In this document: one piece after another, positions 1 to 61,121 of the stretch
How the letters are laid out: each line of letters starts with the position of its first letter
Numbering within the stretch: position 1 is the stretch's first letter
Position numbers and translations under genes: made by a program
Source of the DNA: Escherichia phage cardinal
Sequence record: PQ567651.1
Reading direction: 5' to 3' (one strand)
Length of the DNA: 64,000 nucleotides
Notes under the pieces: generated by a model
What the model was told of the DNA's origin: nothing
Databases searched by the model: none
What the model saw: the letters and a program-made list of their open reading frames with translations, nothing else

Positions 1-472
1 TGTTGGCATTAGAATGGTCCCCATCATCAATTGTTTGCAAAACAATAGCAGTATCTGAACCAGAAACCATATTGTTATCAGAAATCAAGTGCCCCACATT
101 GGAACGCCACATAGTCACGTCACCAGCAGCCCCAGGAGATCCCAAAAATGTGCATCTCACAACATTACAATAACTTGAGTTATTTAGAAATACCGCCGAG
201 GCTTTATAGTTAGAAAACACACAATCTTCAATGCAACAATATGAGCATGTATCTAACCAAACACAAGAACCATTATATGTGTTGGTAGAACCTGAACTGG
301 AGGCAAGACGAGCATTAAAGATTTTGACACCTGTAACACCAGAACCATACAGCAAGGTAACTGTCGGTACATTGCACATCAAAGAAGACCCATTAATAAA
401 TTGTAGAGTCTGGTTATTAGTTTTCAAAGTTAAACGGGCTGATACTGTATATTTTTTAGAAAAATTACATCT
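1..472 (-). CDS. tailspike/tail fiber, C-terminal beta-helix portion (partial, runs off window start); same gene as 430..1023 but in the -1 frame
   Basis: My own translation of the minus strand of 1..472 gives an open frame reading ...KKYTVSARLTLKTNNQTLQFINGSSLMCNVPTVTLLYGSGVTGVKIFNARLASSSGSTNTYNGSCVWLDTCSYCC...SDTAIVLQTIDDGDHSNAN, a repetitive Gly/Asn/Ser/Thr-rich right-handed beta-helix-like sequence that follows the GDGVTDD motif of the upstream ORF. Confidence 0.5.
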
Positions 473-1023
473 TTACCTGAATCTAATGCCGCTTGTATCG
501 CGGTCAAGTCGTCAGTTACGCCATCACCCTTTGCACCATAAATTTCAGGGGTGACATAAGGTAGCTGGGTGGTGGCGTTCACCAAAACCCACGCACCCGA
601 CCCAACACCACCGGATGTTTCAGGGGTTGAGTCAGCGGGAACAGCTTTAGGGAAAGCACCACCCCATGTATAGCACTGTCCACCTGCAATATACCAAACA
701 GCATCCGTCTTATTATTTAATATAGCGCCATCTTCAAAGCTACCGTTGACAAGAGTTAACCCTGCCTCAGCAAGACTACGATGCCATAGTTCACGATCAT
801 TAAGAAGATTGTTATTCAACTCTTCCTGAACAGTATTACCATTTGAGGATTGTATTAAATCTGCTCCATTTGTATCTTTCAACTGGGTGGCTAAAACCAC
901 CCCAGTGTCAGCAAGAAAGTTGGAAACTGTGCTTTTAACAGTCTTATCAGGCTGGTCTAAAATCAGGTAATCAGAACCATTAACTTTTGATGTTTCGGGT
1001 AAATTAGTAATTGTAGTTGACAT
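430..1023 (-). CDS. tailspike/tail fiber, N-terminal portion with start of pectate-lyase-like beta-helix; interrupted by frameshift
   Basis: ORF track 197 aa; ends ...YGAKGDGVTDDLTAIQAALDSGKDVIFLKNIQYQPV*, carrying the GDGVTDDxxAIQAA signature of pectate-lyase-superfamily tailspikes, then stops 15 residues later. Confidence 0.6.
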   Translation of the reverse strand: MSTTITNLPETSKVNGSDYLILDQPDKTVKSTVSNFLADTGVVLATQLKDTNGADLIQSSNGNTVQEELNNNLLNDRELWHRSLAEAGLTLVNGSFEDGAILNNKTDAVWYIAGGQCYTWGGAFPKAVPADSTPETSGGVGSGAWVLVNATTQLPYVTPEIYGAKGDGVTDDLTAIQAALDSGKDVIFLKNIQYQPV

Positions 1024-3199: not shown

Positions 3200-6076
3200 T
3201 TATTTGGTTACATCAACACTAATATCATTCATAGTTAGAACAGTTAGTGTTGGTATGTTACTATTATCCAAAATTGGTAAAGCGTTTTGAGGGTTTAGTT
3301 TACGATACAAGGCATATAAACCAAAACCACGTAATAGTTCTCCTGCATGGAAACCAAAGAACATTCCGTTATCTGAATCTGGGCGTGGTGCAACACTCCA
3401 GGAACCATTCATCGGATGGTTAGGGGAAAGCACAATATAGTTTTGCTGAATCAGATCAAAACATCTGTCTGCTACAATACCAATGTTTGGAATTTGTGAA
3501 TCATAACCTGCCAAGCCCATGATTGAACAACCCGCCATAAACAGTGCAGACATATGACTAGTAAAGTCATCTATAGGTGCAAGAACTGTACCATCTGGAT
3601 TAAAGATAGTTGGTGTTCTTCCATCATTATTGTCTTGGAACCATTTAAGGTAGTTGATCCAATTTTTACAAACGGTTACTAGTTTTTCAGGAGGTGTTTC
3701 TCCTCTTTGTACAAGTTCGTATACAGCATGACAAGCACAGTAGAATGCACGAGCTTCATAACCATCCCACGCTTTTTCATTCCAGTGTTTCATTGTGAAC
3801 GTATTTGGTTCACCGTATTTTCTTGCATCCCAACGATCCCACACATATGCTTGTGCCATAGGCCCAGGCATCACAGGATCAAACGTGTTATAAAACCACA
3901 TTTGAGCATCATACAAGAAATCAATACTGTTGTTTAAACGTGTCCAATCAATATCCCTACCTGCGAAACAGTATAAGGAAGGATACTGGTATCCTGGGTA
4001 TGGAATACCACGCCATCCATCGTATAATGCAGTGTTTGGGTCACTGATATTAGAGAATGGAATTATTCCTGGTGTGTAATTAAGACTATTTAACTTATAG
4101 TCAATAATAGTACAATCACCTAACTTAGCAGTATGAGGATTTGAAGCCTGTACAGTAATACGGAAGTACATGGTATAATCATCACCAGAAGATGACGAAT
4201 ATCTTTCAGGTACATCGTTAATACAATAGAAATCTATTGTTCCTGTTAAACCATTGACAGGAGCCGTATCAAGAACTAAATTTACCTGATCTACAGCAGT
4301 AAGATTTATTGCTGAAGGTTTAGGATCTGTTTCTGGATGATTAGGCTGGTAAGCACTTAACTTAAAATCAGAAGCTGATAAAGTCTTCGTACTCCATGCC
4401 CCTTGCGTTTTAGGCAGCATAGCCCACCATCTCCAACCTTGAGCATCCGTGATAGTCATGTTAAAGTCATCTTCATATGTTCTATATGTAATAGACTTAA
4501 CATTAGCTTTTGATGTAGGAGTTAACCAAAAACCAACAGTAACACCACCATCCGTATCCATTGATGCAGTAACAATCTGGTCATTATTAGTTCCAGCAAT
4601 ACCTGTTACATACTTATATTGTACCACAGTATTGTCACCCCAGTCAACAATAATTCGCGGATCTGCGATAATATATGTTCCACCACTTGGAGGGGTGCTT
4701 CTCATAAAGCTGGATAATGGAATATCCATGCTTGTCATATTAGCTGTACCCAGTGGTAAGCCACAGCGGTAAGTTACTGTGTTATTTTCATCTTTGGTCT
4801 TACTTAGTTCCAACTCTGGACGGAAAAGAATACCATGTCCTGCGTCATCTACACCTTGAAACTGAACTCGTAACTTAGAGTTCTGATCAACTTTAAACCA
4901 AATGGCTTGCTGTTCTAATGTTGTTTGAGCAGCAACATCTTGTCTAATAACAATATAGCCTAAAGTATCTCTTGAATATTTAGGTATTGCTGTAGATGGA
5001 TATGAATAATCGTAAGAGATGCCATCTGTAAACGGAATAGTTGCATATGTAGACTTACGGAAAAATTTATCAAACATATCAATGTTTGAGTAATCTTGAC
5101 ACACTAACAGTGAAGACTGCCAGCATAGCCAATATTTTCTTTCTCCTGTAATTTGGTACATCAGGTAATTAGCATCACACCACCAAGTTTCGGCATCTGA
5201 CGCATTATCCTGAAAGCCCATTTCTACCGGAACGTTAACTGGTCTGTTATGCCACATAGTGTTACGCTCCATTAAATAACCACCGTGCTCAACAGGGTTA
5301 CAAGTCGCGTAGTTAAATTTATATGTACCGTTTACAGAAGTATTTTTTAGTTGAACTGTTCCGTATTGAGATGTTGGAAAACCTTCTTCTAAGACATTTC
5401 CATCCCAGTCAACTTTACGTCCTAGACGATCAATGATCCAATCAACATCCCATTGATCTCCCTTCTTAGACCAATCTGTTGTACCATCTGCATTAACAGC
5501 ATATACTGTAGCGTTTACAGAGTTCCATCCTAGATTACCATTAAAAGCAAACCATGCTTTGTCAAGGTATTCTCCCCAATGAGGAGCACCATGAGGAATA
5601 ACTGTTCTACCGTTAGTCCACGTCATTAAGCTACCCTTAAAACCTCCGTGTGTAGGGTAGCCATCATCTGTAAGAGGATAGTGCGCAAGACGTGGTTCTT
5701 TACCGTTAATAATCCAGTTAGGGCGATATTTTGCTGGCGGATCGGGGATCGGTTGACCACCAAAGAAGTAATCTATATAGGCTTGCCAATATTTTTTAGC
5801 AGAGTCTAAATACTTTGTATCGCCGGAAGCCAGGTATGCATAAGCGCAACCAAGAATAAGCACGGATTGACCTTCTGTTGTAGCATCCCCGTTTGGTTGC
5901 CCTTCTTGAGCAGTCCAGTTTATAAAGTGTCTGTTATTAGCTAGAACGTTTTGTGGGTTTAATACATAGTGTTGCACTGTAGGATCTACAGTTAAACCTG
6001 TATTACGATCTAAGAACTGAATATGTCCATCGATCAGTTGAAAAACATTGTCAATTCTGTGCTTAATTCTTGACAT
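3200..6076 (-). CDS. large tail/baseplate-associated structural protein (possible tail fiber)
   Basis: 958-aa ORF in the tail module, no overlap conflicts; function inferred from position only. Confidence 0.45.
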   Translation of the reverse strand: MSRIKHRIDNVFQLIDGHIQFLDRNTGLTVDPTVQHYVLNPQNVLANNRHFINWTAQEGQPNGDATTEGQSVLILGCAYAYLASGDTKYLDSAKKYWQAYIDYFFGGQPIPDPPAKYRPNWIINGKEPRLAHYPLTDDGYPTHGGFKGSLMTWTNGRTVIPHGAPHWGEYLDKAWFAFNGNLGWNSVNATVYAVNADGTTDWSKKGDQWDVDWIIDRLGRKVDWDGNVLEEGFPTSQYGTVQLKNTSVNGTYKFNYATCNPVEHGGYLMERNTMWHNRPVNVPVEMGFQDNASDAETWWCDANYLMYQITGERKYWLCWQSSLLVCQDYSNIDMFDKFFRKSTYATIPFTDGISYDYSYPSTAIPKYSRDTLGYIVIRQDVAAQTTLEQQAIWFKVDQNSKLRVQFQGVDDAGHGILFRPELELSKTKDENNTVTYRCGLPLGTANMTSMDIPLSSFMRSTPPSGGTYIIADPRIIVDWGDNTVVQYKYVTGIAGTNNDQIVTASMDTDGGVTVGFWLTPTSKANVKSITYRTYEDDFNMTITDAQGWRWWAMLPKTQGAWSTKTLSASDFKLSAYQPNHPETDPKPSAINLTAVDQVNLVLDTAPVNGLTGTIDFYCINDVPERYSSSSGDDYTMYFRITVQASNPHTAKLGDCTIIDYKLNSLNYTPGIIPFSNISDPNTALYDGWRGIPYPGYQYPSLYCFAGRDIDWTRLNNSIDFLYDAQMWFYNTFDPVMPGPMAQAYVWDRWDARKYGEPNTFTMKHWNEKAWDGYEARAFYCACHAVYELVQRGETPPEKLVTVCKNWINYLKWFQDNNDGRTPTIFNPDGTVLAPIDDFTSHMSALFMAGCSIMGLAGYDSQIPNIGIVADRCFDLIQQNYIVLSPNHPMNGSWSVAPRPDSDNGMFFGFHAGELLRGFGLYALYRKLNPQNALPILDNSNIPTLTVLTMNDISVDVTK

Positions 6077-12547: not shown

Positions 12548-12960
12548 GGGGCATAGTTCACCTCAAGAACTTTTGCAGCTAAGTCAACAACTAATTCTGG
12601 GTGAGCAAAAAACAATTCATCAAAATTATCGGAAACACTGTGTCCTGCTTCTGTGTAAACTTCATCTAAAATTTTACGTAAGAATGCAGCTAAGTTTTTT
12701 TCTTCCAGACCACTGAATAATTGGATCAGTGCCATAGCAATACGAGCTTCTAGATCTTCGTCTGCTGACATAAGAGCAGTATTATACATTGTCATAGGAA
12801 CAGCCAGTACACTACCTAGTTCTGGAATCCTTTCAAAAACTTTAGTCGGACTCCACTTGAGAACTCTAAATTTTACACTGCGTCCTTCATCCAGATCAAT
12901 TTCAACCATTACTTCTGGACGAGCAAATTTTGCAATAGTATTATCTTTTTGTTGTTCCAT
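12478..12960 (-). CDS. tail assembly chaperone (G-like)
   Basis: 160-aa acidic ORF immediately upstream of tape measure; contains slippery heptamer near its 3' end. Confidence 0.6.
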   Translation of the reverse strand: MEQQKDNTIAKFARPEVMVEIDLDEGRSVKFRVLKWSPTKVFERIPELGSVLAVPMTMYNTALMSADEDLEARIAMALIQLFSGLEEKNLAAFLRKILDEVYTEAGHSVSDNFDELFFAHPELVVDLAAKVLEVNYAPFFKRGFGKLLTQFQGIETLAKS

Positions 12961-20115: not shown

Positions 20116-20595
20116 TTAATCCTTCTTCACTTTACATCCTACTGCACCAATGCTTAAACCTTTAAGAACGCCGTTCTTTCTTGCTTCATACAGTTCAGGA
20201 TCATAGAATTGAATTTTAACGAGTGGTGTTCCTTCAACAACAAACTCGTCACCAATATAACAATCGACTTCATTAACCCAAGCCTTAACTGGTTTAAATT
20301 TATCGGTGTTTTTGATATGACCAAGATTACCACTTACGTTAGTAATATTTGCGTTGAAGTTGTCAACCATCTTTCTGATTTCAATTTCAGACATACGTTC
20401 ACCGTGGAGGTCATCGTGTTCTGGTGGACAATACATCACTTCAATCACTTGCATTTTTTCTTCGTCAAATTTATTTTGTTTGACGATAGTAGCAGGTGTT
20501 TCTTCTGGAGTGGAATTTTGTTGGGTTTGCTTTTTCTCTTTCGTTCCACTGAACGTTTTATAGAGTTCCCAAAGCGTGTCTTTATTAAGTTCCAT
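20116..20595 (-). CDS. head morphogenesis protein (possible prohead protease)
   Basis: ORF track start 20607; the second in-frame ATG at 20595 is preceded by AGGAAC. Function assigned by position only. Confidence 0.35.
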   Translation of the reverse strand: MELNKDTLWELYKTFSGTKEKKQTQQNSTPEETPATIVKQNKFDEEKMQVIEVMYCPPEHDDLHGERMSEIEIRKMVDNFNANITNVSGNLGHIKNTDKFKPVKAWVNEVDCYIGDEFVVEGTPLVKIQFYDPELYEARKNGVLKGLSIGAVGCKVKKD

Positions 20596-20631
20596 ACGGT
20601 TCCTCATAAAAACAAATATCCCATAAATCTT

Positions 20632-58077: not shown

Positions 58078-58321
58078 GAGGAGCATTTTTATGACCGAGA
58101 AATTTATTGTTACTATGGAACTCACCTTTGATGAAGAAGATTTTGATCTTCATGTATCAACTAAAGCAGATAACATTCACACAACACAGAGTGTTGCAAT
58201 CGCTATGTTCTTTAAACAAGCTATTGCAAAACAAGCTGAAGTATGTGCTGGTTTAGCTGTAGAGTATGCAGAAGTTGTCAAGGTTCTTGAAAGTGCTCGT
58301 AACGGCGATTGGGATGAATAG
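58070..58321 (+). CDS. hypothetical protein (frame stays open 67 codons past its TAG stop)
   Basis: 83 aa. Confidence 0.4.
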   Translation: MFKRSIFMTEKFIVTMELTFDEEDFDLHVSTKADNIHTTQSVAIAMFFKQAIAKQAEVCAGLAVEYAEVVKVLESARNGDWDE

Positions 58322-58528
58322 TGGCATACAATTACTATCTGGTATATTTTTAACGAAACTAAGAAAAAAGACACAGGAACTAATGTTTATGCGGAATCCG
58401 AAGAACACGCAAAAGCTATTGGTTCAGTGCTTCTTTCTAGAATAGCAGGTGAAGAAATTCCTGTAGAGGCTATCTTTGCAGAAGTTGACCCTAGTATTCA
58501 AGAGGATGGTATTACCACTACTTAACTG

Positions 58529-60052: not shown

Positions 60053-60379
60053 ATGAAAATAACGACAGAACAGGCTTTAATAGACAAAGGAAGGGAAATC
60101 TTAGAAAGTCATTTGGAGGATATTCAAAGGACTCCAGGGTATCTCGGCTGGCGTATACAAGAAGCCGTCGATTTTCTACCCCGTAAAAATAAAGAGATTG
60201 AAGTAAGATCTCTATTCCTCCTTGTTAAAGTAGATGGTGACGCTATATACAAAGATGTAGCGTCTCACATTGAACAAATAGAAGAAAAAGCCTACAAAGA
60301 ATTTGCAGATCTTGTTGTAGAACATAATATAGAAGGTAAAGTTAATATCTTTATACTTATGGATTTTGAGGAGAGTTGA
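60053..60379 (+). CDS. hypothetical protein
   Basis: 108 aa. Confidence 0.4.
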   Translation: MKITTEQALIDKGREILESHLEDIQRTPGYLGWRIQEAVDFLPRKNKEIEVRSLFLLVKVDGDAIYKDVASHIEQIEEKAYKEFADLVVEHNIEGKVNIFILMDFEES

Positions 60380-61121
60380 TGCTAGTATATCAAGAAATTA
60401 GTGTAAAAGATGATCAAGACCTGTTTATTATTGGTGATTTACATGGTTGCTTTGATTGTACCAGAAAGGTGTTAATACTTTAGGTATCCGAGATCAAGAT
60501 GTTGTTGTATCTTTAGGAGATCTTACAGATCGCGGCAAGCAGAATTTTCGTTGTGTTGTTGAATTCACCAGAAAGCTAAATCGTTATGGTATTCGTGGAA
60601 ACCATGAAGATATGATGATTAAAGGGTTGCTAGAAGGTGATAGACGATATTACGAATGTTGGTTTCAGAACGGAGGCCATACAGTTCTAGACGAGTGTGG
60701 AGAAGAGGGTGCAACTGCTCTTGCTTCGATGCTAGAAGATTTACCTGTTGTACTTGTTGTCAATTATCGTAATATGAAACTAGGCTTTATTCACGGTGGG
60801 TATCCTTCAGTTTTGGAACATTTGCCAATAACAGAAGTTTTGCCATTTTGTTTGAATATGAATAAAGAGCAAGTTTCTCGATTCACAGAATCTTTAATGT
60901 GGGATCGTGATATGATAGATTGCGCACTTGAAGGGATTCTTCTTCCTAGAGTTTCAGGAGTAGATTATGTATTTCACGGGCATTCTTATGTTCCTAAACC
61001 TGTGATTAGCAGTAATAGGGTATATATGGACACAGGATCTTGCTTCAATGGTAATTTAACCTTTGCATATTTTGATGATTCAAATACGTTACAATTTTAT
61101 TCTACTTTAGAGGAGGACTAA
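60379..61121 (+). pseudogene. Ser/Thr protein phosphatase (lambda PPase-like metallophosphatase) split by a frameshift near 60453-60483
   Basis: Frame 1 from ATG 60379 gives MLVYQEISVKDDQDLFIIGDLHGCFDCTRKVLIL* (GDxHG motif); the -1 frame continues ...YQKGVNTLGIRDQDVVVSLGDLTDRG...GIRGNHE... (GDxxDRG and GNHE motifs). Confidence 0.55.

Follow-up and report, generated by a model that had tools for sequence, protein, structure and literature searches.

A tailspike gene divided between two reading frames

At the left edge of the sequence analysed here, a 64,000-nt window of the Escherichia phage cardinal genome (PQ567651.1), a tailspike gene on the minus strand begins in one reading frame and continues in another. 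A preliminary description of the locus had offered four explanations, namely a sequencing error, a pseudogenised gene, a phase-variable receptor-binding protein and a programmed ribosomal frameshift, and the question is which of them accounts for the break. The first two survived comparison with related phages, and no support was found for phase variation or a programmed shift. As judged from these comparisons, the split tailspike is an unprogrammed loss of a single base, either a recent mutation or a base-calling error, and not a programmed frameshift.

A 197-aa reading frame on the minus strand (ORF1, 1023..430) starts with the ATG at 1023 and ends in GAKGDGVTDDLTAIQAALDSGKDVIFLKNIQYQPV at a TAA (432-430). 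From 472 onwards, the -1 frame has no stop before the window edge; its translation includes FSKKYTVSARLTLKTNNQ, and in the adjoining sequence it stays open up to a natural stop 1.17 kb past the edge (Table 1). Between the two lie, in order on the minus strand, T5 (464-460), CT (459-458) and A6 (457-452), and a shift could rescue the protein only within 40 nt (472-433). The point at which the frames switch is ~16-18 codons past the GDGVTDD motif. The preliminary description had placed the frameshift correctly, and had rightly traced the helix as far as the window edge in the -1 frame, where the fragment matches a beta-helix profile; the distance from GDGVTDD to the stop of ORF1, given there as 15 codons, is 25 codons.

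Tail_spike_N (PF18668) matches aa 92-148 of the 197-aa ORF with 67.3 bits (cut-off 25), and PDB entries 8x8m and 4oj5 match the same stretch. Beta_helix (PF13229) matches the -1-frame fragment with 26.4 bits (cut-off 25.9) and full-length AV125 with 76.7 bits. Anchor and helix lie on one polypeptide in 7/7 homologues and are split at 460-464 in the window, where the sequence as deposited specifies a stub of 197 aa (anchor, Tail_spike_N and the first part of the helix) and a remainder without an anchor. Initiation at an internal ATG, giving a 516-aa remainder as a functional product, was considered and rejected, this product being without an anchor and its start without a Shine-Dalgarno sequence.

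Table 1. Positions of the features at the tailspike break and at the two companion lesions, in window coordinates
Feature	Position	Strand	Remarks
ORF1, N-terminal tailspike fragment	430..1023	-	Anchor region, Tail_spike_N (aa 92-148) and first ~45 beta-helix-domain residues, including GDGVTDD
Tailspike beta-helix continuation, -1 frame	1..463	-	Residues 188-341 of the 731-aa protein
T5 run (lesion site)	460..464	-	T6 (TTT TCT = Phe-Ser) in 7 homologues
A_AAA_AAT heptamer	451..457	-	In register with the zero frame (CTA AAA AAT)
Two-frame overlap region	433..475	-	-1 frame closed by TAA at 475-473; ORF1 TAA at 432-430
RNA-structure test segment	370..451	-	82 nt, from the last heptamer base (451) to 370; no frameshift-stimulating structure
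T4 to T5 insertion	58347..58351	+	Stops a conserved 67-aa gene (Phi92_gp054 homologue) at codon 11
T3 to T2 deletion	60456..60458	+	Splits a NinI-like Ser/Thr phosphatase between the GDLHG and GDLTDRG motifs

The broken gene is an accessory receptor-binding module

The phage in the window is Justusliebigvirus-like (phi92-like, Stephanstirmvirinae) and 98-99% identical to AV123, EmilieFrey and phi92. Two lateral fibre genes, of 958 aa and 719 aa, precede the broken gene. Many relatives have the first ~146 codons in common and then a different C-terminal module, and EmilieFrey has no gene in the tailspike slot. Because most relatives swap the C-terminal module and EmilieFrey is without the gene, the tailspike is an accessory, exchangeable receptor-binding protein that is dispensable in the group. 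This agrees with a published comparison in which AV125 and AV126 differ by one putative receptor-binding protein in the tailspike region (PMC10844046).

The tailspikes of AV125 (WPK37822.1) and AV123 (WPK37331.1), each 731 aa long, lie at the equivalent position behind the lateral fibre gene (719 aa) but have T6 and one open frame where the window has T5 and two ORFs. The nearest characterised relatives of the helix are tailspikes of Klebsiella przondoviruses, including a K16-typed phage. In the capsule-depolymerase tailspikes of vB_Kpn_K16PH164C3 (CAK6604641.1) and Whistle, the entire beta-helix and C-terminal part are 50% identical, but the N-terminal anchor and the host are different. The tailspike of the window may be a depolymerase that acts on the capsule or the O-antigen of E. 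coli.

Over its C-terminal 1.77 kb (positions 1-590 in the window), the tailspike gene differs by one synonymous base among the window, AV123 (Justusliebigvirus) and AV125 (Phapecoctavirus). This near-identity across genera, when many other relatives have just the first ~146 codons in common, speaks for a recent horizontal exchange of the receptor-binding module, with a putative junction just after Tail_spike_N. In Klebsiella phage Kpn17 (OQ790080), the 50%-identical homologue at 20165-21909 aligns as two separate pieces. Three features are annotated there, a tail fibre protein and two hypothetical proteins, and the homologue may be another split tailspike.

Relatives identify the lost base as a T

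When AV125 and AV123 were aligned with the window, the T run was the sole local difference: both relatives have T6 where the window has T5, and A6 is common to all three sequences. All 7/7 independent homologues, down to ~90% identity, read AATTTTTTCTAAAAAAT (Phe-Ser), and T5 occurs in the window alone. The seven are AV125, AV123, SRR29133548, SRR31228211, ERZ8974715, ERZ28629329 and SRR12217738, the last five having been drawn from a large protein collection; two of these five are ~9-11% diverged, three have different N-termini, and all five read AATTTTTTCT, again Phe-Ser. The A6 run is kept in 6/7 intact homologues, where it is decoded in frame as Lys-Lys, and is AAAACA in SRR12217738.

These comparisons bear on the suggestion in the preliminary description that one extra A would restore the protein. 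The frame arithmetic holds, but the relatives, all of them with T6 and nearly all with A6, show that the lost base is a T, so the intact protein reads DVIFSKKYTV and not DVIFLKKYTV, and the ancestral state does not have A7. Adding one T back yields a 731-aa tailspike identical to that of AV125 at 725/731 positions, with all 6 differences before residue 143. Over the 1,636 nt 3' of the break, there is one synonymous difference from AV125 and no second lesion, and a sequence so flawless after the break means that the break is either very recent or not real. More distantly, the tailspikes of K16PH164C3 (50% identity) and Whistle are both continuous across the break site, with Ser in the former and Tyr in the latter aligned with Ser190.

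Exact-pattern scans of IMG/VR, JGI metagenomes and GTDB genomes, with T5 or T6 and A6 or A7 allowed, returned no match, and the tailspike module is rare outside the protein collection. A ~90%-identical tailspike broken by a different one-base deletion was observed at ~3400-3410 of SRR12217738_2786 (Logan; a 153-kb phage contig). There, TTTAAAAAATATT has become TTTAAAAATATT (A6 to A5) at gene nt ~1406, giving products of 498 and 187 aa. A copy 99.3% identical to it, ERZ28629329 (ENA), is intact.

Run lengths and companion lesions in the window

A/T runs of 4, 5 and 6 nt occur 669, 213 and 70 times in the window, against 677, 228 and 77 expected under a first-order Markov model. Runs of at least 7 nt occur once (T7 at 12695) against ~39 expected, a ~40-fold depletion that is also found in AV123 and EmilieFrey. 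This cliff in run length is therefore a property of the phage group and suggests strong selection against slippage-prone tracts. Since runs of at least 7 nt are almost absent, T6 and A6 are the most slippage-prone sites that the genome allows, and this proneness explains the position of the lesion, not any programming. Of the 70 six-base runs in the window, 68 are concordant with relatives.

The whole window was then compared with AV123 and EmilieFrey for single-base indels private to it. Six were found, all in homopolymers and 5/6 of them deletions. Three are non-coding (8938, 29473 and 42101), and three break conserved genes (465 in the tailspike, 58351 and 60458). The Phi92_gp054 homologue disrupted at 58351 has a second private change, an ATG to GTG start at 58321, 30 nt upstream of the lesion. 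The NinI-like phosphatase disrupted at 60458 is divided between ORFs 60376-60483 and 60456-61121, which parts metallophosphatase motifs I and II. At these two sites, 0/55 related phage records match the window allele exactly; among the matches listed, the relatives have the intact length, one base longer at 60458 and one base shorter at 58351. In all three broken genes (3/3), the downstream frames are perfectly intact.

In a four-genome comparison over 46-48 kb, AV123, EmilieFrey and phi92 each had 1-2 private, uncompensated indels of 1-2 nt; by context and annotation these were intergenic or in the tRNA region, and 0 broke a gene. The window genome is therefore an outlier. Its three coding lesions all fall in accessory-type genes, with none in the remaining ~25-kb structural module inside the window and no such lesion in 8 kb of structural genes past the window edge.

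Recent mutation or base-calling error

We put the chances that T5 is a genuine, very recent null allele at about even. One T would have been lost from the conserved T6 (TTT TCT, Phe189-Ser190) of an accessory, horizontally exchanged tailspike/depolymerase gene by replication slippage in one of the longest homopolymers that the genome tolerates. Further slippage could revert the lesion, either by +1 in T5 or in A6, the latter with Leu for Ser. Translation would end at the stub, the tailspike would not be made at useful levels, and one of the several receptor specificities of the phage would thus be lost. The contrast of T6 in 7/7 homologues with T5 in the window, with Ser even in the 50%-identical K16-type tailspike, would favour a real allele, and the other private change, 30 nt away from the lesion at 58351, also counts for it. 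Counting against it, three private frameshifts within 64 kb mark an outlier, and intact downstream frames also resemble sequencing errors.

The main competitor, which we rate at somewhat under an even chance, is a read-level artefact. The phage would truly have T6 and an intact 731-aa tailspike, and the sequencing chemistry would have under-called the T run and mis-called the two other runs in most reads, so that every assembler reproduces the error. Errors of this kind are familiar from flow-based and nanopore platforms, where single-base errors in A/T runs split otherwise intact genes at several places per genome. Several features of the window fit such a source: three private 1-nt homopolymer indels with the window allele in 0/55 relatives at two sites and 0/7 at the third, zero such lesions in the curated relatives AV123, EmilieFrey and phi92, a predominance of deletions with per-run rates that climb steeply with run length, and flawless frames downstream. 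The Logan copy in SRR12217738, with an A6 to A5 frameshift that its 99.3%-identical ENA counterpart does not share, also fits. The window departs from typical platform errors, however, in that a k-mer assembly is identical to it over 24.8 kb, which suits accurate reads better than noisy ones, and in that two of its lesions are in runs of just 3-4 nt. The agreement of 68/70 six-base runs with relatives and the sparing of essential genes also speak against an artefact. Homopolymer length was dropped as a discriminator between platform error and slippage, as per-run rates rise with length under either model.

The exact 197-aa protein was found only in the Logan contig SRR33749226_0 (72 kb), and other proteins of the window on SRR33749226_1 (63 kb). 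Over 24.8 kb, three pieces of these k-mer contigs match the window at every base (100% identity). They include all three frameshift alleles and probably derive from the same reads as the window. The window bridges a 2.6-kb gap between the contigs and therefore stems from a separate and more complete assembly made from the same material; because the two assemblies agree, T5 represents the majority of reads and is not an assembler quirk. The contigs end at ~13722 and 16354, so that the gap falls on the region of the sheath gene. Across 73.5 kb, there is no repeated 25-mer to explain the contig breaks, and breaks without a repeat could reflect coverage, noisy reads or a mixed sample. A look-up with the sheath protein for the missing piece of SRR33749226 returned matches from other samples only, and a literature search for SRR33749226 gave no match. 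Because the allele is in two assemblies and the three lesions are only in dispensable-type genes, we lean slightly towards a real mutation.

If the mutation is real, virions would carry at most the 197-aa stub and would be without that tailspike specificity, leaving the phage short of a receptor specificity present in AV123 and AV125, a point relevant to host-range work and biocontrol. The consequence is chiefly one of annotation, in which the locus should appear as a frameshifted tailspike (T6 to T5) and neither as a pair of genes nor as a site of recoding. The lesion is a frameshift of an ordinary sort in a gene of known type and raises no new recoding question.

Slippage switching and recoding

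Phase variation, which the preliminary description had listed, would make the locus a contingency locus in which the pair of T and A runs toggles the tailspike by replication slippage and yields mixed virion populations. We consider this very improbable. It is in line with a lesion in the longest homopolymer class that the genome tolerates and with a second member of the gene family (SRR12217738) broken at a different A6 run, and receptor-binding genes are known targets of such switching. In the account given in PMC10877375, receptor-binding genes of Campylobacter phages contain hypermutable poly-G tracts (Sorensen et al. 2021, Cell Rep 35:109214). In both systems, a change in run length puts a receptor-binding gene out of frame, but the tracts described for Campylobacter phages are long G runs that vary within stocks, whereas the window has a T run of 5/6 nt at ordinary frequency. 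Neither T5/T6 nor A6 is an unusually long hypermutable tract, and the tract is one of ~70 such runs in 64 kb (70 six-base runs against 77 expected) and far shorter than known hypermutable ones. At the T run, 1/8 sequences differs, with the ON length in 7/8 genomes; SRR12217738 is broken at a different tract. Equivalent lesions are found in two unrelated non-receptor genes of the same genome, so no mechanism specific to receptor-binding proteins is needed.

A compound arrangement, in which T6-CT-A6 is a low-frequency slippage switch and the OFF allele is supplemented by leaky -1 ribosomal slippage on A_AAA_AAT, is less probable still. Were switching true, a stock would mix virions with and without the receptor specificity of the tailspike.

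A programmed or leaky -1 ribosomal frameshift at A_AAA_AAT, yielding a full-length tailspike (…DVIFLKN/YTVSAR…), is the least credible reading. The heptamer (457-451) is a canonical X_XXY_YYZ site in register within the 40-nt overlap, and the phage group encodes its own tRNA-Lys(UUU) and tRNA-Asn. AAU in the A site is, however, a weak shifter in E. coli. A two-frame layout was found in 0/7 homologues, the tailspikes of the Klebsiella relatives are also single-frame and continuous, and the heptamer with near-identical flanks occurs in six intact single-frame relatives. Folding of the 82 nt from the heptamer onwards gave a minimum free energy of -8.2 kcal/mol against -9.64 +/- 2.31 kcal/mol for shuffled sequences (z = +0.62; 146/200 shuffles fold as well), indicating no stimulatory structure, and no Shine-Dalgarno or AGGAGG-like element is present in the 20 nt upstream. 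Known -1 sites such as E. coli dnaX (A_AAA_AAG) and the phage tail chaperone genes (G/GT) likewise have an in-register heptamer and a short two-frame overlap; the window differs in having no stimulator, a layout that is not conserved and a shift that is needed in 1/8 genomes. The predicted junction peptides are DVIFLKNYTVSAR or DVIFLKKYTVSAR for a frameshift and DVIFSK for the T6 allele.

Other features of the window and its relatives

The large terminase gene (minus strand) is also interrupted, with aa 1-410 in one ORF (25411..24173) and aa 427-694 in another (23164..22358). The ~1-kb insert between them (23165-24172) is absent from AV123, EmilieFrey and phi92. It contains an ORF for a 226-aa HNH_3 endonuclease (24057..23377) and, at 23265-23453, a match to the Rfam family Intron_gpI whose 47 bits (E = 1.5e-10) fall slightly short of the 50-bit cut-off; a mobile group I intron is the probable identity of the insert. 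On the minus strand, 14 tRNA genes cluster at 26931-29689, and compared with AV123, EmilieFrey and phi92 the stretch at 28380-28910 shows local rearrangement or divergence. Five records described as Campylobacter phages A150, A145, C3, A110a and B15, with host Campylobacter jejuni (MG065639, MG065645, MG065656, MG065689 and MG065650), are 97-99% identical to the E. coli phage group of the window over matched stretches of up to ~24 kb, and are probably mislabelled or contaminant coliphages.
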